Shown here piece by piece: positions 2,607 through 30,396 of a stretch of 64,000 nt of DNA (its first letter is position 1; the number at the start of each line of letters is the position of its first letter). The notes under the pieces were generated by a model, which was not told where the DNA came from, made no database searches, and saw nothing but the letters and a program-made list of their open reading frames with translations. This DNA is from Methanomicrobia archaeon. GTDB taxonomy: Archaea > Methanobacteriota_B > Thermococci > Methanofastidiosales > NM3. The position numbers were made by a program, and so were the translations under genes. The stretch is taken from positions 43,924 to 107,923 of the forward strand of contig JAUVXU010000001.1 of NCBI GenBank assembly GCA_030603445.1, read 5' to 3'.

Positions 2607-3126
2607 GAAAATACTGTCCTTTTTCACCTTCGTCTTCTCCCATACCTCCACAATTCCCATAAGAGATGCCATTAGAAAGAAAATGGCTGGCCAGGTGCCA
2701 TGTATAAGCCACCACACAAGATACCCCGATATGACAACAAGTGCTACAACCAAGGGAATAGCAACATATAATGGAAGATATAATACTTTAATTTCTAACG
2801 AATGTATACGCATATTTCCCTCTTGTTAGGTCAACTTATTAAGTTTATTGTGGGTAGAAACGATAAGTTAAAAGAGCGAATGAAATAAAATCATTCTGGT
2901 TCAAGGTCCAGCAATAATATAAGGAGTGCTAGTATAACTGCAACTAGTGCCAAGATCCCCCTATCGTAGACATAGAGGATAAGGGCCGCAATAATAAACA
3001 GTATGGTGGATCTCGAGCCTACCTTCATGCCTGTATAAACCCACATACATTAAAAAAAGTATTGGTGGGTAAAGCAATAGAAAAAATTTTAAATGGAAGA
3101 AATGTTCTAAACTACTAAATAGCAAT

Positions 3127-3213
3127 GTCAGGGTGGCCCAGCCTGGTACGGCGCCGGCCTGCTAAGCCGGTTCTTGAAAGAGATCCGGGGTTCAAATCCC
3201 CGCCCTGACGCCA
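3127..3213 (+). tRNA. tRNA-Ser (anticodon GCT), class II with a long variable arm and encoded CCA
   Basis: Sequence GTCAGGGTGGCCCAGCCTGGTACGGCGCCGGCCTGCTAAGCCGGTTCTTGAAAGAGATCCGGGGTTCAAATCCCCGCCCTGACG+CCA. There is a 7-bp acceptor stem (GTCAGGG/CCCTGAC), a 5-bp anticodon stem (CCGGC/GCCGG) with loop CTGCTAA giving anticodon GCT, about 15 nt of extra arm, and a T-loop GGTTCAAATCC. Confidence 0.9.
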
Positions 3214-3307
3214 AATCTATTCTTGTTATGTTGCCCATACATTATTTGATGGATTTACGCATTTTTCCCCATATATTACGAAACCAAACACTTCATCCAA
3301 TACTTAG

Positions 3308-3332
3308 TTTGCAGTGGAAACGAAGGGGTATG
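3308..3332 (+). repeat. Isolated ORB-like element (TTTGCAGTGGAAACGAAGGGGTATG), near-identical to the ORB at oriC (28218–28245)
   Basis: It matches the oriC ORB at 28218–28245 at 18 of 19 core positions. It sits in a 430-bp AT-rich spacer about 95 bp downstream of tRNA-Ser. Confidence 0.6.
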
Positions 3333-3637
3333 AAATGATACTCTTCATTCCAATGAGCAGCTTCTTTTCCATGACATTATATGATATATTTATGCATAAA
3401 ATGCCATATCCAATTCGTGCCGTGAAAAACAAGGGATTAAATATAAATAATACCCTATAAAACTAAATCTATGGAACATGAAAAATTATTTATGGGGTGT
3501 GTTGCAGGCGGTATTATTTTAGGAATAATACCCTTTGGTTTTGAGTACAAGGCAATTGCCGTAGGTGTAGCAATAGGTTTGATTTTCTTTATGCAGATGA
3601 GAAATTATATTGACTGAAAAATTCTCCGATAGGTTGC

Positions 3638-4171
3638 CTATCTATCTGGAGGTCTTTTTCTTAGATATTTATTAAGCTCGCATCGCAGGTAGCTACGAGA
3701 AAACATCTCAAGCCCAAACTGGCTGTTTTGGGCCTCAAGTGGTGCCTCGAAACGAATAGAGTCTTTGTCAATTATATGTATACTGCCACCTTTTCCAATA
3801 GCAATGTTTAGTGGCCATTTCCCCATAAAGATACCATATCCAATTCCCCTTGACCGGAGTTCTTCTAATGTCGTATCAATTAATATGTTATTAGTAAGCG
3901 GAGTTATTATTACTATTCCCTTAGTGATACTGCTAGTTGGGTCAACGCAGCTTAAAAACTGCTCCAATTGCTCTTTACACTGTGCATTATAATCTATGTG
4001 CGTAAGATACTGTGCTTCTTTTGTTTCAATATATAACGAAAGGCAGGAAATGATGCTCGTTGTTTCTAGAAATTCTTCATCAGATGCTCTTTTACAAATG
4101 CAAGAGCGCTGAAATATCTTCTTCACATTCTCGGGCTCACGTATTAAAGTTACCAAGTAAATTACTCCCAT
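3638..4171 (-). CDS. Hypothetical protein (177 aa)
   Basis: ORF only; no recognisable motif. It overlaps the upstream ORF by 10 nt, as in an operon. Confidence 0.4.
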   Translation of the reverse strand: MGVIYLVTLIREPENVKKIFQRSCICKRASDEEFLETTSIISCLSLYIETKEAQYLTHIDYNAQCKEQLEQFLSCVDPTSSITKGIVIITPLTNNILIDTTLEELRSRGIGYGIFMGKWPLNIAIGKGGSIHIIDKDSIRFEAPLEAQNSQFGLEMFSRSYLRCELNKYLRKRPPDR

Positions 4172-4473
4172 CGCTTTTTGTTGTAGTAGGTTTTCTTGTA
4201 GGCAACGATAAAAGATCGGCCGTCAATATCTTCGTTTGCTACCACATAATCCATTGTAAACGAGTCTTCCTCTTCGCCCCGAACTGTTAGAACACTGTCT
4301 TTTGATTCTACAATAGGAAATCCGTTTTTATGAAAATATTCCCTCAATAATGGCTCTTTATCAGCTGGCACTCTAAGCGCCACCGTACCTGTGCATGAGG
4401 AATAAAGCTCCTCAATGTCTTTTGTGTTTGCCAATAGGCGCCATGTCATGTCGCAACTTTCGCCTAACATCAA
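4162..4473 (-). CDS. Hypothetical protein (103 aa)
   Basis: ORF overlapping the next gene by 10 nt. Function unknown. Confidence 0.4.
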   Translation of the reverse strand: MMLGESCDMTWRLLANTKDIEELYSSCTGTVALRVPADKEPLLREYFHKNGFPIVESKDSVLTVRGEEEDSFTMDYVVANEDIDGRSFIVAYKKTYYNKKRWE

Positions 4474-4581
4474 AACAAATCATGTTTGATAAATAAAAAT
4501 CTAATGCGATAGAAGGCATTTGTTATATCTGCCGGTCTTGATCCTTTCATTATTTATGATAAGAAATAATAACTTTCTAGC

Positions 4582-5781
4582 TTAGCTGCCCCTACACAAA
4601 CTCGCACAAAAAGCCACAGCTAACGTTTTTAAATTAACTGGGCGCTTTCTAACTGGCCTAACTTCCTCCTCGTTCTCAATTATCGTTGCAAGAAGATACC
4701 AATTTGAGAACACAATACGCCCCCCTAAATAATCCTTTGTCAAAGAATATCCTGGTGTTCCAAATCCAATGTTTTTTACCATTGCCCCAGCAAGAATAAA
4801 TGAGAATTCTCCAAGATATGTCTTGTAAGGTTCGCTGAAATATTCTTTCTCATCTGTCTTTTTGCCTATCTGAAGAAAATCATAACGATTGTCCTTGCCC
4901 AACGGCGCCTTGTAGATGTTTGCATCATCTACCCATATGTCATAAACGGCGCCCGTGTGATTCTGCATTCCTAAAAGCCACCCCCATGCATCCTCTAGTG
5001 CGTTGCCGTAACGTGTGCCAGCAGATATTTTGTACGCCATCCAAAGCCCCATCATTGTCATTGTCACGTAATGGACCGACCTATCCCATCTGGTCGGAAT
5101 CCTAAGGGCATATCCGTCATGCCAGGACCCATCCATTAACTGCATGTCATACAGCGCGTCTGCAAGCTTTATGCAGTATCCATAATAGGGGTCTTTTGCA
5201 ACGCCATAATAAGTTAGTGCACCTATTCCAAGGCCCACGATTCCCAAATCATTAGGGCTTGTCCAATAGTATGAAGTGAGGGATGATGTATTAAAACCCC
5301 CGTTGTGCTGGTTCAAACAACGGGTATCGTTGCATTCTGCAGGATATGTTTTCTCCCATCTGTCCATCTCCATTATTAGAAAATCACCGCATCTAATTGC
5401 GGCCTCTGCATAAGTGGTGTTGCCTGTATACCAATATGCTGCAGAAAGCACCCATGCACCAAGTCCTGTAATAAGCTTGGAATTTACATTTTCCTTATCC
5501 AAATACCTCTTTACCTCGCCATTCTTATCTGTCCTTAGAAGGATTGCATCAGCGCATTGCAAGGCCTTTTGCTGTACAGAATAACTAGGCTCATTCATGT
5601 CCAGATACATTAAGAAAATAAACCTATAACAAATGTTTATCCCGTCCTCCTCAGCTACAGGATCCCATATAGATAGTGTGCGCTCATAAATGGATGTTGC
5701 CTCTGTAGTTGATGCCACAACAGGGGGGCAGAAACCAACTATCAACATTGCCAAAAGAAAAGTCGTTACGTATCGGCGCAT
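4582..5781 (-). CDS. Secreted protein with a signal peptide, possibly an alpha/alpha-toroid (prenyltransferase / squalene-cyclase-like repeat) fold
   Basis: The N-terminus has a hydrophobic signal (MRRYVTTFLLAMLIVGFCPPVVAS). The mature part is Trp/Tyr/Gly-rich with repeated aromatic segments (DGSWHDGYA, NHTGAVYD, GGFNT). The fold guess is weak. Confidence 0.45.
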   Translation of the reverse strand: MRRYVTTFLLAMLIVGFCPPVVASTTEATSIYERTLSIWDPVAEEDGINICYRFIFLMYLDMNEPSYSVQQKALQCADAILLRTDKNGEVKRYLDKENVNSKLITGLGAWVLSAAYWYTGNTTYAEAAIRCGDFLIMEMDRWEKTYPAECNDTRCLNQHNGGFNTSSLTSYYWTSPNDLGIVGLGIGALTYYGVAKDPYYGYCIKLADALYDMQLMDGSWHDGYALRIPTRWDRSVHYVTMTMMGLWMAYKISAGTRYGNALEDAWGWLLGMQNHTGAVYDIWVDDANIYKAPLGKDNRYDFLQIGKKTDEKEYFSEPYKTYLGEFSFILAGAMVKNIGFGTPGYSLTKDYLGGRIVFSNWYLLATIIENEEEVRPVRKRPVNLKTLAVAFCASLCRGS

Positions 5782-6133: not shown

Positions 6134-7432
6134 ATGGCAAAAGAAAAACCACACTTAAATGTAGCATTTATTGGTCACGTTGACCACGGAAAGTCTACAA
6201 CTGTCGGACAGTTGCTGGTCCAACATGGTGACATTAGGGAAAATATAATCAAAAAGTTCGAGGATATGGGCGAGAAAGGTAAGACCTTTAAATTCGCATG
6301 GGTAATGGACAACCTCAAAGAAGAGCGTGAGCGGGGCGTGACAATCGACTTGGCTCATAAGAAGTTCGAGACAGATTCAAAGTACATCACGATCGTGGAC
6401 TGTCCAGGACACCGTGACTTCGTCAAGAATATGATCACTGGCGCCTCACAAGCTGATGCAGCCGTTCTTGTCGTTGACGCAAAAGACGGTGTAATGCCGC
6501 AGACGAAGGAACACGTCTTCTTGGCCAGAACGCTTGGTATCAAGCAACTCGCAGTTGCTGTAAACAAAATGGATGTAGTTGGCTACAAAGAAGAGAGGTA
6601 TAACGAGATAAAGGATTCTGTTTCAAAATTAATACGTGTTGTAGGCTTCAAGCCCGATGAGACACTATTTATTCCTATCTCCGCATTCGAAGGGGACAAT
6701 GTAACTAAATCTTCAGATAATCTATCCTGGTATAAGGGCAAGACTCTTCTTGATACCATAGACTCTTTCAAAGAGCCTTCAAAACCAGTTAACAAGCCCC
6801 TTAGGCTTCCGGTGCAGGATGTATTTACTATAACCGGCGTAGGGACCGTCCCTGTTGGCAGAGTGGAAACAGGCATAATGAAAATAGGGGACAAAGTGAT
6901 TTTTGAACCCGCATCAAACATCCTTGGTAAACCAGTAACTGGTGAAGTAAAGACTGTTGAGATGCATCATGTTACCTTAAAGCAAGCAGAGCCTGGGGAC
7001 AACATAGGATTTAACGTACGAGGCGTCGGAAAGAAGGACATCAGGAGAGGCGATGTTTTAGGACACGTTTCCAAACCACCAACGGTCGTAACACCAAAGG
7101 ACACATTCAGGGCGCAGATAGCCGTTCTCACCCACCCAACAGCCATCACCGCAGGATACACCCCGGTGTTCCATGCATATACTGCACAAGTAGCCTGCAC
7201 ATTCGAGGCACTTGTCGCAAAACTCGATAAGAAAACAGGCGGTATAGCTGAAGAGAATCCAAAATTCTTGAAGTCTGGCGACGCCGCAATCGTTGAGATA
7301 AGGCCAACAAAGCCAATGGTGATTGAGAACTACAAGGAACTCCCAGAAATGGGTCGATTTGCTATACGTGATATGGGTACAACAGTTGCTGCAGGTATGT
7401 GCATCGCTATTCACAAGGGTGGCAAGTACTAA
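6134..7432 (+). CDS. tuf: Translation elongation factor EF-1 alpha (aEF1A)
   Basis: The GTPase motifs are present ([24 protein letters not shown]), with the domain II/III conservation of archaeal EF-1alpha. There is a GGAGG Shine-Dalgarno 8 nt upstream. Confidence 0.97.
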
Positions 7433-18540: not shown

Positions 18541-19779
18541 TTAGCTTAGTCTTTCATTAATGGTTTTTAAGTTATAAAGAATAATTAATTGAAGCACTTG
18601 ATTTAAGCTATTATCATTTCTTTTTTTTGCACCTTTTGTTGAATCAAGATATTGTTCTAGAAGCCCTAAGGGAATATCAAAAATAGGGACACCTTGGGTC
18701 CTTAACAAATGAAACGTGATTAATCTTGTTGTCCTGCTGTTTCCATCTTCAAAAGGATGAATCTGCTGAAACTCATTATGAAAATATGCTACAAAGTCAA
18801 GAATTTTTGTTAATGTGTTTTTCTTTACTCTAAACTCATTATATTTTTTTATTAAAATATTTAGTTTAGGTTCTATTTCTTCGACTTTTGCAACTTTAAA
18901 ATAAGGTTTGCCTTTTATATAAACAGGAAGATCCCTTATTTTTCCTGCAATATCATCTCTATGTTGCATTGCCAAATAATGATAACTAGTTATAGCATTT
19001 TTTGTAAGTGGCATGTTGTTTAATGCATCCTGAAGCATTTTTTGCATAGCTTTCTGATAATTTTTTACTTCTTCAATACTTTCAACACTTAAATTTTTAG
19101 GAACAATATAATCTCTGAGAAGTTTAATTGTGTCTGGAAGGGTGATGGGGTTTCCTTCAAGAGTTAAACTATGATGAATAAAACTTATTTCAAACTCATC
19201 TATGATTTTTCTATAAACTATAGCATTTCTATCTTTTAACCTATTAAATTTTTTCAGTTCTCTTTCAATTTCACTGAAATATTCATTTTCTTTGTGTTTT
19301 ACAACCAATACTTTATGACTGAAATATGCAACTAAATTTTTTAGAAACGAATTATAAGGTATAATACCTATCAAGGGCTTTCTAGATATGATTATTAATA
19401 AGCCATTTTTTGCAAGAATATTTACATACTTTGAATACGTTCTTGGATGAATGTCAAAATCATTTATACCAAAATTCTTCTTTAAAAATCCCTTACTAAT
19501 AAATGCAGTAATATTCTCATCTAATAGCTCATTATAATTAATTTTGTTTGATACACAAAATTGAATCATCTGATACAAGAGATCATTTTTTTTGTTTCTT
19601 ATAACTTCAAACCCATGTTCCGACTTAGAAACCTGCTTCATTTCAGCCAGATCTGTCATTAACCTGTAAATGAATTTATAGTCCTTATCCAGCTTTTTAA
19701 AATAAGTGGCAACTTCTTTTGGTTGTATGATGCTGCCCTTGGAATACATAAACTCAAAAACATCGTATTTTGTTACCAT
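18541..19779 (-). CDS. Fic-family protein (putative AMPylator), 412 aa
   Basis: The Fic motif is HPFEDGNSRTTRL, a variant of HPFx[DE]GNGRxxR with a Gly-to-Ser change. An upstream inhibitory-helix-like SLTLEGN ([ST]xxxE[GN]) is present. There is an extra ~190-aa N-terminal region. Confidence 0.8.
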   Translation of the reverse strand: MVTKYDVFEFMYSKGSIIQPKEVATYFKKLDKDYKFIYRLMTDLAEMKQVSKSEHGFEVIRNKKNDLLYQMIQFCVSNKINYNELLDENITAFISKGFLKKNFGINDFDIHPRTYSKYVNILAKNGLLIIISRKPLIGIIPYNSFLKNLVAYFSHKVLVVKHKENEYFSEIERELKKFNRLKDRNAIVYRKIIDEFEISFIHHSLTLEGNPITLPDTIKLLRDYIVPKNLSVESIEEVKNYQKAMQKMLQDALNNMPLTKNAITSYHYLAMQHRDDIAGKIRDLPVYIKGKPYFKVAKVEEIEPKLNILIKKYNEFRVKKNTLTKILDFVAYFHNEFQQIHPFEDGNSRTTRLITFHLLRTQGVPIFDIPLGLLEQYLDSTKGAKKRNDNSLNQVLQLIILYNLKTINERLS

Positions 19780-25074: not shown

Positions 25075-26635
25075 AGTTCATTAAGACAAGGTTGTGTGTT
25101 TGTAAATTTATTATGGGGACCTTGGCCACATCAGGCGTTATGTTTCTCATCTTCTGAAAGCTCGTCTGTGACTGCCAACCACCAGAATTTATAAGAGTAA
25201 CGCCGCGATACACCCCATTTCCATTCATGTGGGTATGTCCTGTCTGAAAGATGTCTGGTGTTTCATCTATGCAAAGATAATCGCTGGTCTCAGGAATTAT
25301 CTGCGTCCCTTTCCCATATACAGGCGCAAGATGCCTCTTTCGCAGCATCTCTATCATGGGGGGGATAGGCTTGTTAATCTCGAAACCCGGGACTTGTGAA
25401 AGAAAGTCAAATATCGAGTCGCCATGGTACGCAAGACACTTTACGCCGTGTAGCGAGAAAAAAGAAGGATTAGACACCATATGTATGTTATCCATATCGT
25501 AAAGGTCGTAGGCAAACGCTTTTGGGATAGGTATTTGGGGATTCCCGCTTCTTGTGGCATCGTGATTTCCTGGCGATACTATAACTTCTATCCAATCGGG
25601 GAGATACGATAGCAGCTGTGCCGTTTTCTCATACTGTTTGTATATGTCAGTAATGCAGAGCTCCTTATCCTGATTGGGGTATATGCCAACCCCATCAACA
25701 ACGTCGCCGCAGATAACTATATACTTTATCTTTGATGCTATCTCTTGCTGTTTCTCGTTGCCTGTCTCTAGGCGCAGCCATTTGATGAAGCGCAAAAAAG
25801 ATTTTTCCATAAAATTATTGCTTCCAACATGCACATCTGAAGTGAACACCGCACCAATGTCATAAGGGGATACATTACGATTCCTGCCAAGTGCAATATC
25901 TGGGAATTCGAAGTTATTTGAAAATATTATATCTTCCCCCAACGCCCCAGAAACACCTATAACCTCATCGCACACAATGTACTTTGCACGTTCTAATAAG
26001 CGTTCCTTCTTCGTAGAAACAAGAACTTTTATCGTACCGGAAAGATCCTCAAGCTCCAACATTACGTTTCCGTTCTTAGTTGTCTTCTTACTTCGCACAA
26101 TACCGACTATCTTCACCTGCGATTTTAGTTCATTGGCCTTTGCATTTTTGATACTGACGAAATCGCGAAGTTCTCTGTGTTGCTTGAATATCTTAGATAT
26201 TCGTGTGTAACGATCCTTAAAAAGAGAGAGAAAATCCTCAAATTTTCCTTCAGAATCATCTTTTCCCGACACATCCTTAATAATCTTAATATCCTTATCT
26301 ACGTCCTTTGAAGGTATATGCTTTACTTTTATAGATTTTCTCTTTTTCTCGCTTTTGGGGACCTCGTCGGGAAGTTCTGCTCTTTGTTCCACTGATTCTT
26401 TTTGCTGTCCTGATTCTATACGTGGATAGAAATAATCCTCATAAACGTCTTTTGTAACAATAAATATATTATTTTTCTTCAAATGTGTCATGAATTCTAG
26501 AATAATATCTTCATTTGCTGCATCCTCAAGAAATTTAGCATATGCCTCTTCATTAAGAAGTACACCTTCGTCAAGGAACATGCCTGGTATGTTAATTTTA
26601 CAACTTTGTGTTGATGCCATAAGCCCTCTGCCCAC
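25064..26635 (-). CDS. polD1: DNA polymerase II (family D) small subunit DP1 (Mre11-like calcineurin phosphoesterase exonuclease)
   Basis: It has an OB-fold and a phosphoesterase domain with the metallophosphatase motifs (DVHVGS, GDVVDG, GNHD, GHTH). It overlaps dp2 by 11 nt and orc1 by 1 nt. Confidence 0.95.
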   Translation of the reverse strand: MGRGLMASTQSCKINIPGMFLDEGVLLNEEAYAKFLEDAANEDIILEFMTHLKKNNIFIVTKDVYEDYFYPRIESGQQKESVEQRAELPDEVPKSEKKRKSIKVKHIPSKDVDKDIKIIKDVSGKDDSEGKFEDFLSLFKDRYTRISKIFKQHRELRDFVSIKNAKANELKSQVKIVGIVRSKKTTKNGNVMLELEDLSGTIKVLVSTKKERLLERAKYIVCDEVIGVSGALGEDIIFSNNFEFPDIALGRNRNVSPYDIGAVFTSDVHVGSNNFMEKSFLRFIKWLRLETGNEKQQEIASKIKYIVICGDVVDGVGIYPNQDKELCITDIYKQYEKTAQLLSYLPDWIEVIVSPGNHDATRSGNPQIPIPKAFAYDLYDMDNIHMVSNPSFFSLHGVKCLAYHGDSIFDFLSQVPGFEINKPIPPMIEMLRKRHLAPVYGKGTQIIPETSDYLCIDETPDIFQTGHTHMNGNGVYRGVTLINSGGWQSQTSFQKMRNITPDVAKVPIINLQTHNLVLMNFGD

Positions 26636-27954
26636 TAAAGTTTATGCTGTATCGGGGGCACGTATGTAGCAACACGCTCTATTTTTCTGTCAAGCTCTAG
26701 AACACGTTTGGCTTGGGTGACCGGAACGCCCATACGTATTTCTTTAGTGCGGCCGTAGCGCCCTTTACTAACAACTTTTGCATTTAATATGCCTAGCATA
26801 TCTAGCTCGGATATAATATCAGATATTCTTCGCTGCGTCAATATCTCGCTTGAAGAAAGCTTACACAAGTCACGATAGACTGTATAGACCTCCCCAGTAG
26901 AAATTCCAGAAGGTTCATATTTTTCTAGTAATATACAGGAGTATAAAACAAGCTTTGATTGTATCGGCAGCGTTTTAACGACTTCTACTATTCTGTCCTG
27001 TTCTATATGGTCCTTTGCCTCACGTACATGTTTCTCGGTGATCCTTTTGCTTTTCTCGCGCTCTGCCAGTTCTCCTGCAACCCTGAAAAGATCAAGTGCA
27101 CGTCTAGCATCTCCATGCTCCTGGGCAGCATATGCAGAGCATAACGGTACTACACCAGTATCTATTAAATTAATTGACCTGCAAGACATCTTCGCACGTT
27201 GTGTGAGTATGTCCTGAAGCTGTATGGCGTCGTATGGCGGAAACACTATCTCCTCTTCCCCAAGCGAGCTTCGTACACGAGGATCCAGAAATTCTATGAA
27301 GTTGAGGTCGTTTGTTATACCGATAATGCTAACGCGCGCGTTAACAAGATCAGAGTTTACGCGTGTAAGGTTATATAATACTTCATCGCTCCCCTTTCGA
27401 AGCAATCTATCGATCTCATCGAGAACTATTATGACCAGGCGCTTTTCGCGATCCAGTGTTGAAAAGAACGTGTCATACACCTTATCCGTGGGCCACCCTG
27501 TTAAGGGTATGGACTGCCCAAAATATTCACCCAACTTCGCCAAAAGACGGTATTGTGTATCAACTATTTCACAGTTCATATAAATAAACCAGACTGGATA
27601 ATCATTATCAGTAACAGCAGAGTAGTCGGGAACTATATTATTGTCTCGAAAAGTCTTTGAAAAGAATTTCCCGCCGATCTTTTTGACAAGTGCTTTGCCA
27701 ATATGTTTAACAACAGCTGTTTTTCCAGTACCTGTCTTTCCATACACAAATATATTAGAAGGCGTTTCTCCCTTGAAAACGGATACTAGTATAGCTGCTA
27801 CCTCTTCTATTTGACGCTGTCTATGAGGTAGTTGATCAGGCGTATAAGAATGACGTAAAACCTCTTTATTAATAAAAATGCGTTCATTGCTTAAAAGTTC
27901 ATCAAATAAACAGTCTAGACTCTTTTGGTTGTTCATCATTGCACCTGGTTCCAC
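26635..27954 (-). CDS. orc1: Orc1/Cdc6 replication initiator
   Basis: AAA+ fold with Walker A YGKTGTGKTA, Walker B IIVLDEID, and a C-terminal winged helix. It is adjacent to the ORB-containing origin. Confidence 0.95.
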   Translation of the reverse strand: MEPGAMMNNQKSLDCLFDELLSNERIFINKEVLRHSYTPDQLPHRQRQIEEVAAILVSVFKGETPSNIFVYGKTGTGKTAVVKHIGKALVKKIGGKFFSKTFRDNNIVPDYSAVTDNDYPVWFIYMNCEIVDTQYRLLAKLGEYFGQSIPLTGWPTDKVYDTFFSTLDREKRLVIIVLDEIDRLLRKGSDEVLYNLTRVNSDLVNARVSIIGITNDLNFIEFLDPRVRSSLGEEEIVFPPYDAIQLQDILTQRAKMSCRSINLIDTGVVPLCSAYAAQEHGDARRALDLFRVAGELAEREKSKRITEKHVREAKDHIEQDRIVEVVKTLPIQSKLVLYSCILLEKYEPSGISTGEVYTVYRDLCKLSSSEILTQRRISDIISELDMLGILNAKVVSKGRYGRTKEIRMGVPVTQAKRVLELDRKIERVATYVPPIQHKL

Positions 27955-28292
27955 TAGAAACGGTCCTTTTTATATATTTCCTCTACCCCTTTGTTTCCAA
28001 TGGAAAATTATAATAGAACACCATATTATAAGATATTTTAAGATATTATTAAATGAGGCAGTCCTTCATTTCCAGTGGAACATTTTTTACGAAATTTGGT
28101 TGATTTGCGCTTCAGAAAATGTAATTGCGAAAACTATTTATAGATAGAATGAAATAAGCTTTTAGAACCTTTTTTTATTACAATAATAAAGCATTAAAAA
28201 ATCTTTTTATTATTCTACTCCACTGGAAACGAAGGGGTAGGGGTCAAGCATAATTTAAAAAGGTTTATTAACTAAAATATATTATAAATCGT
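27955..28292. other. Chromosomal replication origin (oriC): inverted ORB elements flanking an AT-rich duplex-unwinding element
   Basis: There is a mini-ORB GTTTCCAATGGAAAA (27993–28007). ORB at 28058–28082 reads, on the minus strand, GTTCCACTGGAAATGAAGGAC. ORB at 28218–28245 reads CTCCACTGGAAACGAAGGGGTAGGGGTC on the plus strand. Between them lies about 130 bp of more than 75% A+T. This is the canonical archaeal origin architecture directly upstream of orc1/cdc6. Confidence 0.8.
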
Positions 28293-28943
28293 ATGGACAA
28301 TTTGTCGGAGAAAAAATCCCTCAATCATTTTCTTCTTGTTCCACACGGCATTAAGTTATATTCTGGGAAGATAGGTTGTTCGAATATAGATGCATACGAT
28401 GCTACGTCTATCATATTTAAAAATATTTTAAAATGGATTTTTGTGGATTATAATATAAAGGAATTCTCATTTATTGGGTTAACATTAAATGCGATGCAGA
28501 CTAGAAGTGCGGAAGAATTAACACCAATTATGGAAGTCGAGTCCACAACATATGAAGATCCTGATTTAGTATCGTTTCTAATGGAGAATCAAATTAAGGT
28601 AACGTTCAAAGGAAACTTCTCTAAACTTCCAAAATATTATAGACGTGCCATGAAGAATATTACAAAGCTCACGGAAAATCACATGGCCCACAAGCTCAAT
28701 ATTTTAGTTGGATATGGCCTTGGCAAAAAAAGTCTTTTTTCAAAGATAAAAAAGAAGCTTTTTAGGGATATTTTTACAAGCGACCCTCCCGACCTAATGG
28801 TAAGCACTGCAGGTAGAGATTTTAGTATTATTTTGGAGAAAATTCCCAAGACTACAAAGACGCTAGTAGTTGATACTATTTTTCCAGAGCTAACGCAGCA
28901 GAATATAAAATCTTTTGTTGATTATTATTTTGCTACACCCTAA
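28293..28943 (+). CDS. Cis-prenyltransferase (UPPS)-fold protein lacking the catalytic DGNRRWA motif (possible non-catalytic NgBR/Nus1-like subunit)
   Basis: 216 aa, collinear with UPPS. HFLLVPHGIKLYSGK replaces H.AIIMDGNGRWA. FIGLTLNAMQTRSAEELTPIMEV corresponds to LTLYAFSSENWNRPAQEVSALMEL. The C-terminal DPPDLMVSTAGRDFSIIL corresponds to PVDLVIRTGGEHRISNFL. This is homology by eye only. Confidence 0.45.
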   Translation: MDNLSEKKSLNHFLLVPHGIKLYSGKIGCSNIDAYDATSIIFKNILKWIFVDYNIKEFSFIGLTLNAMQTRSAEELTPIMEVESTTYEDPDLVSFLMENQIKVTFKGNFSKLPKYYRRAMKNITKLTENHMAHKLNILVGYGLGKKSLFSKIKKKLFRDIFTSDPPDLMVSTAGRDFSIILEKIPKTTKTLVVDTIFPELTQQNIKSFVDYYFATP

Positions 28944-29028: not shown

Positions 29029-30396
29029 CTACTTAGTTGGGAGTAGTTCATTATTTACTATTTCTTTTATTTTTTTAAGATACTTCTTATATTCGTAATG
29101 TAACGTTTGTGATTTAAAATCAAAGTAAGGCTCTTCAAGTGAGATGCTTTGCTCAAAATAATACCGCATACGGGGAGCACGAGATTTCCTGCTTTCGTGG
29201 TATGAGATGGACCATACGTTGTATCGTATCTTTGAGTTAATAAAAGGGGTGTTTAGCAGTCCCATTATTCTTTCTTTATATAGGGGATGGCATCTTATGT
29301 GTACACACCAGTGATATTTACCGTAATCATTTTCATTTAGAGATTTGACGAAGGCGCCAGCTTTTAATGTGCGGGCGCATGCACCAACACTTGCGGCAAT
29401 CTTTTTCGTGTCATCGTAGTTTTTTCCTGTGAGCATTAGGAAGAAATGGGAGCATTTGTCCTTTGGCATTGGATAAACTGTGTAGAATTTGCGTACTATT
29501 CCTGCGTTTTTTAGTTTCTCATAAGAATATCGCCATGCATTATATCCAAATATGTAAGGGTTATTCCCTTCCTTGTCTATTATTTGTGCATCGTGCTTCA
29601 TTAGTCTAGATAAGTCTCCATTATAATATCCTGATTGTAGGTACATTATAAGGCGCGTATCTAGCAGCGATAGACGCAGGCGTTTTTCTTTAGTTGCCTC
29701 GAAAGCGGGTTTGAATGTTTTGTCAAAGTTTATTTTATCGACAACTAATGGCGTCTCACAAATGTTGTTAGGATTTTTCGTAAGATGGTATGGATTGTAT
29801 ATATCCAGTAATCCTTCTAGTTCAAATGCGGTGTAATAAAACAAGACCCCTTCGTCTTTTAGATAGTCCATAATTCGAATTATGGCTTTGGAGTCTGTGT
29901 TGTATACGGATACTAGCATCTCGTTGAATACGCCCTCTTCCAAAGGATAGAAGAAGCTCCAGCTATCAATAGTCTGCAGCAGCGAGATTAGGTAGTCATA
30001 AGTGTACTTCTTTGGGAACATTATGAAAAAGATTAACCTATTAACAGGATTCGTTGAGATCTTCGAAAGATCTATCCAATAGTTCGCTCCGGAAAGATAA
30101 CCTCTCTTCTTTAGTATGGTATTTTTCACGGTTGATATATAGTTGTAGTATTTAAATCCCACAAGTTTGGCTATTTCCCTGTCAGTTAGATCCGGCTGAT
30201 GTCCTAAGATATCTAGAATAGCCATTTGTGAATGGCTTAGCCTTTCATCTTTTTCTAACATTGTTATAGAATTTTCTAGAGATATCATATATATAATGCG
30301 CTCCCTTGTGGTATAGATGGAGGTGATAAGTTGCGTGGATTTCCGCCAGGTTTTGGGCCAGGATTTACTGCACCATGCATTGATGGAGACCCCCAC
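29029..30396 (-). CDS. Hypothetical 420–455-aa protein with an N-terminal winged-helix (MarR/wHTH-like) domain; last gene of the RPA operon
   Basis: A wHTH is present (LSHSQMAILDILGHQPDLTDREIAKLVGF). The remaining ~350 aa are Tyr/Lys-rich with no recognisable family. The alternative start MISLENS… is at 30288. Confidence 0.5.
   Translation of the reverse strand: MGVSINAWCSKSWPKTWRKSTQLITSIYTTRERIIYMISLENSITMLEKDERLSHSQMAILDILGHQPDLTDREIAKLVGFKYYNYISTVKNTILKKRGYLSGANYWIDLSKISTNPVNRLIFFIMFPKKYTYDYLISLLQTIDSWSFFYPLEEGVFNEMLVSVYNTDSKAIIRIMDYLKDEGVLFYYTAFELEGLLDIYNPYHLTKNPNNICETPLVVDKINFDKTFKPAFEATKEKRLRLSLLDTRLIMYLQSGYYNGDLSRLMKHDAQIIDKEGNNPYIFGYNAWRYSYEKLKNAGIVRKFYTVYPMPKDKCSHFFLMLTGKNYDDTKKIAASVGACARTLKAGAFVKSLNENDYGKYHWCVHIRCHPLYKERIMGLLNTPFINSKIRYNVWSISYHESRKSRAPRMRYYFEQSISLEEPYFDFKSQTLHYEYKKYLKKIKEIVNNELLPTK

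Follow-up and report, generated by a model that had tools for sequence, protein, structure and literature searches.

Why should a full-length origin recognition box (ORB), the box recognised by the replication initiator Orc1/Cdc6, stand alone beside a tRNA-Ser gene, far from the replication origin? Such a box lies near the start of the stretch analysed here (hereafter the window), a 64,000-nucleotide piece of a euryarchaeal chromosome of about 40% GC (contig JAUVXU010000001.1). Archaeal Orc1/Cdc6 has been studied almost entirely as an origin-binding initiator, and if selection maintains a canonical origin box at the 5' end of an unrelated gene, this would point to a further role of the initiator, in gene expression, like that of DnaA in bacteria. 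Here we compare the orphan box with the origin of the same window and with the corresponding loci of relatives, and propose that it may serve as an Orc1 operator.

The orphan box and the origin of the window

The box and the sites with which it was compared are:
3308-3332, + strand: orphan full-length ORB, TTTGCAGTGGAAACGAAGGGGTATG, a putative Orc1 binding site
27955-28292, no strand: oriC, a 338-bp spacer of 27% GC between orc1 and the gene of a 216-aa protein
27984-28002 (- strand) and 28221-28239 (+ strand): full ORBs of oriC, an inverted pair
28059-28079 (- strand) and 27948-27964: lesser sites of oriC, a weak ORB and a mini-ORB at the start of orc1
26635-27954, - strand: orc1/cdc6 initiator gene (NCBIfam NF001625 equivalog, 592 bits against a cut-off of 501)

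The core of the orphan box (3310-3330) has its dyad half on the left and its G-string (GGGGTA) on the right, and the box shows the dyad, the AAAC and the G-string of an ORB, as the boxes of the window's own oriC do. The 19-nt core CAGTGGAAACGAAGGGGTA (3312-3330, + strand) differs at one position from the full oriC ORB at 28221-28239, and it resembles the inverted one at 27984-28002 closely as well. When up to three mismatches were allowed, the 64 kb contained exactly three core sites, namely the orphan box and the two oriC ORBs, while 100 shuffles of the window sequence yielded none. A scan with the 21-mer TCCAGTGGAAACGAAGGGGTA found three sites with 1, 1 and 2 mismatches (the orphan box has 1), and the next best match in the window was the weak oriC site with 5. 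The match of the orphan box is real and not a product of chance. The initial annotation had reported an ORB match at 18 of 19 core positions about 25 kb from the true origin, and both statements hold, with one mismatch in 19, no such site expected by chance, and the oriC ORBs at 27984-28239.

The region 27955-28292 is the true origin. The genes of the small and large PolD subunits adjoin orc1, RPA-like genes lie a few kb off, and the cumulative GC skew of the window has its minimum at oriC. The 218 bp between the two full ORBs are 24% GC. The dyad halves of these ORBs face this AT-rich centre, and their G-strings point outward, each just 5' of the TATA-like box of the flanking gene. At the orphan box the G-string likewise points towards the gene, as it does at both oriC ORBs relative to orc1 and the 216-aa gene. 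Presumably, the product of orc1 also binds the orphan box.

Conservation of the box among relatives

A scan for CANTGGAAACRAAGGGGTA, with one genome per species, returned more than 118 loci, mostly archaeal among the matches listed; at the level of sequence, the motif of the box is confirmed as the generic euryarchaeal ORB. BLAST comparison of the window with the listed loci identified one orthologue of oriC (L019) and one orthologue of the aldehyde dehydrogenase (ALDH)/tRNA-Ser locus (L064). The latter, from a metagenome-assembled genome (MAG) labelled 'Thermococci archaeon', bears the box at the same place. Further relatives (L119-L132) were fetched through the neighbouring 177-aa protein, using protein searches, contig look-ups and a metagenome scan, which makes this sample blind to the ORB. 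The gene order shared by the relatives is ALDH, a 77-aa protein, a 45-aa protein, tRNA-Ser, a small open reading frame (ORF), and the 177-aa, 103-aa and 399-aa proteins. By identity of the 177-aa protein the loci fall into three groups:
Group 1: window and L119; box present
Group 2: L064, L125, L126/L127 and L128/L129; box present
Group 3: L120-L124 and L130/L131; box absent

Groups 1 and 2 share 47-55% amino acid identity in the 177-aa protein, and group 3 shares 41-47% with both. One more locus, L132, carries the box and was placed with group 2 by its compact layout, its partial 92-aa protein lying outside the identity matrix.

Six ORB-bearing spacers from the two deep groups gave the consensus TTTGCAGTGGAAAC[A/G]AAGGGGTA, in which 22 of 23 columns are invariant. 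The invariant columns include the off-consensus TTTG at the left edge, while almost nothing is invariant in the 80-94 nt upstream. That distance between tRNA and box is found in every ORB-bearing relative, although the sequence that fills it can hardly be aligned. Because 22 of 23 columns are fixed inside an otherwise unalignable spacer, the alignment indicates that strong purifying selection acts on the box itself. The box had earlier been called 'stray', a label that does not fit its syntenic conservation in two deep groups.

The position of the box is fixed as well. Between its end and the ATG of the small gene lie 3-4 nt in L064, L125, L128/L129 and L132 but 13 nt in L126 and L127 (3, 4, 4, 4, 13 and 13 nt over six relatives), and its orientation is always the same. 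In group 3 the whole spacer between tRNA and ATG is only about 87 nt, and a canonical AGGTGA Shine-Dalgarno sequence stands in place of the box. A MAFFT alignment that put the start-codon region of L120 under the box was judged spurious, since ATGGAC in L120 aligns with the same start sequence in L126.

In the window and L119 the distance from box to ATG is 138 nt. Where L132 reads GGGGTAtgaaATGGAAGATGAAAAACTG, the window reads GGGGTAtgaaATGatactc..., and then, 138 nt later, ATGGAACATGAAAAATTA. The intervening DNA is absent from L064, L125, L126, L127, L128 and L132, and L132 shares the junction GGGGTAtgaaATG. From the compact junction of L132 set against the spacing in the window, we conclude that the 138 nt are an insertion gained in the lineage of the window and L119. 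The loci of the relatives are 54-59% GC, their spacers are 44-51% GC, and coding starts 3-13 nt after the box; the AT-richness that makes the site look like an origin is thus specific to the window's lineage. The insertion carries a TATA-like sequence, TTAAATATAAATAATA, at 3437-3452, which is 20 nt short of the ATG. It also contains, at 3368-3397, a duplicate of 3234-3262 that scores 31 against a maximum of 26 in 500 shuffles. An ORB-like match at 3418-3438 has 7 mismatches in 21 and is indistinguishable from chance; the idea of a decayed duplicate of the box inside the insertion was rejected, as 3234-3262 is the sole segment with a significant duplicate. Between the window and L119, divergence is greatest in the 36 nt that directly follow the box.

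The features around the box are:
3080-3096, + strand: GAAAAAATTTTAAATGG, a putative promoter block of tRNA-Ser resembling a B recognition element (BRE) and TATA box
3127-3213, + strand: tRNA-Ser, anticodon GCT (ARAGORN; Rfam RF00005, 55.6 bits)
3214-3307, + strand: spacer of 94 nt between tRNA and box, 32% GC, with T-runs that could terminate tRNA transcription
3333-3470, + strand: lineage-specific AT-rich insertion of 138 nt, 29% GC, between the box and the small gene
3471-3617, + strand: gene of a small predicted membrane protein of 48 aa, called as a gene in the relatives' contigs; the likely target of the box
3638-4171, - strand: conserved 177-aa protein, predicted to have a CheD/NTAN1/CNF1-like Cys-His deamidase fold; its gene is convergent with the small gene and does not lie under the box
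4162-4473, - strand: conserved 103-aa protein, overlapping the start of the 177-aa gene; syntenic in L119, L120-L124 and L130

The non-coding spacer runs from 3214 to 3470 (257 bp, 32% GC against 40% for the window). The initial annotation was therefore right that the box lies in an AT-rich spacer downstream of a tRNA, with its first base 94 nt past the 3' end of tRNA-Ser. It put the spacer at 430 bp, which is too long since 3471-3617 is coding, and the two overlapping genes that it placed downstream exist (3638-4171 and 4162-4473) but lie on the minus strand and converge on the spacer. The tRNA is 97.8% identical to that of L064, and its promoter block is kept in the alignment of all relatives as GAAAAGATTTTAAAAGG, about 30-40 nt 5' of the tRNA. 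An Rfam search of 2800-4800 found the tRNA as its sole match.

The small proteins of 48-51 aa share a conserved GxPFY..YG....G.AIG..F.MQMRNY pattern, which is present in all groups. This conservation indicates that the 48-aa ORF is a real gene. The family always lies between tRNA-Ser and the deamidase-like 177-aa gene. For the 177-aa protein, an AlphaFold2 model with a predicted local distance difference test (pLDDT) score of 62.7 matched NTAN1 (6a0f, E 2.5e-5) and CheD (2f9z, E 5.2e-5) in a Foldseek search of the PDB. The model also resembles the catalytic domain of CNF1, and a Cys-His deamidase/amidohydrolase fold is common to these three proteins. In the 177-aa family, which seems confined to this archaeal clade, Cys24, Cys26 and His58 never vary. 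No family in Pfam, NCBIfam or PHROGs matched the 48-, 103-, 177- and 399-aa proteins.

Two observations concern individual relatives. In L125 the orthologous tRNA (1270-1356, - strand) is of the Ser type with a long variable arm, and has the anticodon GTT instead of GCT; ARAGORN calls it tRNA-Asn, and the anticodon could be a single C-to-T variant or a sequencing error. In L122 (2849-9450) the first 4.4 kb or so, through ALDH, are as in L120; an extended ALDH with a ZapD match and then type II secretion/type IV pilus-type genes absent from L120 follow, so that the contig looks like a chimeric assembly.

What the orphan box may do

We give about an even chance to the reading that the box is a selectively maintained Orc1 operator at the 5' end of the small gene. 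This reading is favoured because its layout mirrors the order of ORB, TATA and gene at orc1, and because a single full ORB is conserved in a fixed orientation. Among the three options offered by the initial annotation, the comparative evidence favours the transcriptional control site and goes against both the replicon remnant and the second origin. Purified Cdc6/Orc1 of Pyrococcus has a high affinity for one full ORB on its own but not for one mini-ORB, and single mini-ORBs are unoccupied in vivo (Matsunaga et al. 2007, PMC1904270).

In such a scheme Orc1, encoded 23 kb away, would bind a single high-affinity site outside the origin. The ancestral site would lie between an A/T-rich TATA-like stretch and the start codon of the small gene, and bound Orc1 would hinder the recruitment of TBP, TFB and RNA polymerase or early elongation, so that the small gene would be expressed according to how much free initiator there is or to its nucleotide state. 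If the mRNA is leaderless, the box would span about -5 to -27, with the conserved (A/G)ATTTGCA edge at the TATA position and a putative TATA element, GATTTGCA, at about -29 to -22. In an mRNA with a leader, the G-string could also serve as ribosome-binding site, and Orc1 on the box would form a roadblock. Repression would be the expected effect in either case. Since the insertion, with a TATA-like box of its own, now stands between box and gene, control in the window's lineage may be weaker or different, for example as a roadblock to upstream transcripts.

Several observations weigh against an operator. The GC-rich relatives have no clear conserved TATA 5' of the box, which makes the promoter layout guesswork. 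The G-string (AAGGGGT) stands where ORB-less relatives have their Shine-Dalgarno sequence (AGGTGA), and its conservation could be partly translational. The box of the window lies 138 nt from a gene that has its own TATA-like element, and the sister group (L120, L130) lacks a box altogether. Among 56 archaeal ORB matches away from orc1, a crude survey showed no general orientation bias towards genes. In Pyrococcus abyssi, chromatin immunoprecipitation on microarrays (ChIP-chip) found Cdc6 essentially only at oriC.

A rather unlikely alternative, though the one that fares best, is that the box of the window is a stranded relic, which was functional in the ancestor, was uncoupled by the 138-nt insertion and persists for lack of time to decay. 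In favour of this, only the window and L119 have the insertion, which supplies a TATA-like box 20 nt 5' of the ATG. In addition, L119 is the only close relative available (93% amino acid identity in the neighbouring protein) and too similar to be informative, the 94 nt upstream of the box being nearly unchanged as well. The box is nevertheless still perfect, with 0-1 mismatch to the consensus, whereas the window and L119 already show more than 10 differences in the next 36 nt, and the window's group is a deep branch, so that the insertion could be old.

It appears improbable that the box works as an Orc1 roadblock tied to the tRNA, either stopping read-through from tRNA-Ser or pausing the leftward fork from oriC where it meets the tRNA head-on. 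The nearly constant distance of 80-94 nt from tRNA to box in all ORB-bearing loci would fit this, as would transcription of the tRNA towards oriC, which entails a head-on collision of fork and polymerase, and an ORB of the Methanoregulaceae likewise lies 3' of a tRNA-Gly/tRNA-Val pair in the same orientation. The constant distance is explained equally well by a short spacer holding a terminator and a promoter, however; T-runs already follow the tRNA, and the ORB-less relatives keep the same tRNA and gene layout. We know of no precedent for a tRNA-linked Orc1 roadblock.

The 23-mer could instead be kept at the RNA level, as the 5' leader or ribosome-binding region of the small-gene mRNA with no Orc1 site involved. 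It does place GGGGT 3-13 nt before the ATG, where the ORB-less relatives have AGGTGA. A Shine-Dalgarno sequence, though, needs about 5 nt and not 23 invariant nt that reproduce the dyad and the spacing of oriC boxes, Rfam has no RNA family here, and the box of the window is 138 nt from the ATG. We regard this account as distinctly improbable.

It is very unlikely that the box marks a second or dormant origin, at which Orc1 would load MCM onto the adjacent AT-rich DNA, as had also been suggested. A full ORB does lie beside DNA of 29-32% GC, weak inverted ORB-like matches occur at 3361-3371 and 3528-3550, and dormant origins are known in haloarchaea (PMC4595724). Well-studied origins, though, have inverted ORB pairs around an unwinding region, such as the two inverted ORBs that flank it in Sulfolobus oriC1 (PMC12141716). 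The orphan box is a lone ORB with no inverted partner, not one of two or more ORBs or mini-ORBs around a conserved AT-rich unwinding element; the two weak matches were dropped as partners because they are lost even in L119 (93% amino acid identity in the neighbouring protein). No relative has another ORB or mini-ORB core within 400 nt, or an AT-rich tract there. Moreover, the AT-rich insertion is on the G-string side of the box, whereas the unwinding region of the window's own oriC is on the dyad side. The neighbours of the box are tRNA-Ser, the small ORF, the 177-aa, 103-aa and 399-aa proteins, ALDH and EF-1alpha, with no initiator gene (orc1/cdc6 or whiP) beside it; the nearest orc1 is 23 kb away, and the active origin is only 25 kb away. 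Genes converge at the site and the cumulative GC skew has a local maximum there, whereas oriC has the minimum; the skew near 3.3 kb follows gene strand, and a 64-kb window is too short to reveal a weak origin.

The 3' ends of tRNA genes are common integration sites. That and the uncharacterised neighbouring genes speak for a plasmid or virus remnant integrated at the 3' end of tRNA-Ser with an ORB of its own, a reading effectively refuted by the sequence evidence: the flanking gene order is identical in relatives with and without the box, all flanking genes are present and only the box of about 25 nt varies among them (plus the 138-nt insertion in the window), the 25-nt tRNA 3' end occurs once in the 64 kb even at three mismatches and so leaves no attachment (att) repeat, the flanking ORFs have no integrase domain and no significant PHROG match, BLAST found no plasmid or phage match, and the box variant is absent from viral contigs. 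The block 3214-4560, suspected earlier of being an indel at the tRNA, is syntenic in the relatives, which argues against an indel.

Some further observations were made at oriC and elsewhere in the window. The 216-aa protein beside oriC (28293-28943, + strand) has a weak, sub-threshold similarity to isoprenyl transferase (UppS), and on the far side of oriC from orc1 lies the gene of a 455-aa protein without a family (29029-30396, - strand). The closest relative of oriC, L019 (a MAG named 'archaeon NM3'), has an extra full ORB at 2198-2218, about 260 nt beyond the orc1 stop and in, or at the 5' part of, the gene of the PolD small subunit, where the window has no ORB. A gene of the Fic/DOC family (18541-19779, - strand) lies in an island of 30% GC (window 40%) and may be horizontally acquired. 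Another stretch of low GC, at 58-62 kb, contains metabolic genes of an ordinary kind.

Orphan boxes in other archaea and comparison with known systems

Orphan ORBs were surveyed among the archaeal loci in the ORB-scan matches listed, about 56 of which have no orc1 within 1.2 kb. A crude ORF survey of these 56 sites found a co-oriented gene start within 400 nt in 19 and a divergent one in 17, and a general rule that ORBs away from orc1 point at genes was rejected on these counts. Individual boxes are nevertheless placed much like the box of the window's relatives. In Methanoculleus (L061, 4237-4261) a full ORB lies 3 nt before the ATG of a Hel308-type helicase gene, and in Euryarchaeota UBA226 (L048, about 6557-6580, - strand) another lies 5 nt before a gene of a beta-CASP/metallo-beta-lactamase nuclease. 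In Poseidoniales (L065, 3549-3644, and L082) an ORB lies about 95 nt before mcm. That unrelated archaea share this order of ORB and ATG speaks for the operator reading.

At least 20 Methanomicrobiales MAGs have an ORB fused to a TATA-like box, GGGGTATAAAAGG, with no orc1 on the 8-kb locus and with a conserved downstream block, CAGTGGAAACAAAGGGGTATAAAAGGAT...ATTTGCCGGATT (L011, L015, L020, L023, L025, L027, L030, L031, L041, L051, L059, L060, L073, L087, L092, L095, L099, L102, L105, L113 with two copies 215 nt apart, and L115). These fused boxes may be a second origin, an Orc1-controlled promoter or a non-coding RNA. In Methanoregulaceae (L006, L016, L034, L053, L097 and L111) an ORB followed by TATAAATA lies about 110-600 nt 3' of tRNA-Gly(TCC)/tRNA-Val(CAC) in the same orientation, which parallels the layout of the window. 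Six bacterial genomes of Dyadobacter (L009, L017, L028, L079, L086 and L093) contain the ORB pattern in the identical context cgaCAATGGAAACAAAGGGGTAatcac, which is presumably conserved coding or regulatory sequence unrelated to Orc1.

Judged by their positions, orphan ORBs at promoters are clearly not unique to the window. Only tentatively, and with more doubt than confidence, would we suggest that non-origin canonical ORBs form a small euryarchaeal Orc1 regulon, with boxes 3-100 nt 5' of start codons. Its candidate targets may include the small membrane protein, the Hel308-type helicase, the beta-CASP nuclease, mcm and the genes behind the TATA-fused boxes of Methanomicrobiales. If it exists, such a regulon would couple initiator availability to gene expression, the initiator doubling as a DnaA-like transcription factor. 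In our literature search no account came up of canonical ORBs that are conserved as orphans and act at distant promoters, which is not proof that none exists.

The orphan box has the same architecture of dyad (TCCA-N-TGGA), AAC and G-string as the ORBs of Sulfolobus oriC1 and Pyrococcus oriC, and is nearly identical to the ORBs of its own oriC and to many other euryarchaeotal ORBs. Unlike oriC ORBs, it is solitary and 25 kb away from orc1, lacks a partner ORB, a mini-ORB cluster and a conserved unwinding element, and has a clade-specific TTTG at its left edge where they have (T/C)TCC. It comes closer to the ORB/mini-ORB at the orc1 promoter (27948-28002), where autoregulation is presumed and where the G-string likewise points towards the gene at its core promoter or 5' end; unlike that site, the orphan box faces an unrelated small membrane-protein gene outside the origin.

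Orc1-2 of the Sulfolobales is reportedly a non-initiator paralogue that recognises a different short promoter motif and not the canonical ORB. As a transcription regulator of the DNA-damage response that belongs to the Orc1/Cdc6 family (PMC6061795, PMC9738581), Orc1-2 is a precedent for regulation by this family, while the motif here is the canonical origin box. In Thermococcales, ORB and mini-ORB copies lie inside dp1 (Matsunaga 2007; Berthon 2008, PMC2643942). These copies are likewise outside the intergenic origin, but only a few hundred bp from oriC, and probably belong to the origin neighbourhood, whereas the orphan box is 25 kb away.

In bacteria, DnaA boxes also occur outside oriC, where DnaA acts as a transcription factor or binds datA/DARS-type sites. 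As with the orphan box, the origin motif of an initiator is reused at a distant promoter and conserved among relatives. Unlike DnaA boxes, the orphan box belongs to another initiator family and another domain of life, and a single box offers little capacity for titration. The presumed target encodes a tiny protein, and in this genome the arrangement is disrupted by the insertion. Origin predictors that rely on motifs can mistake orphan boxes for additional origins, and the comparative context separates the two here. As one 23-bp site at one small gene, the orphan box would provide a simple, testable handle on any DnaA-like role of the archaeal initiator.

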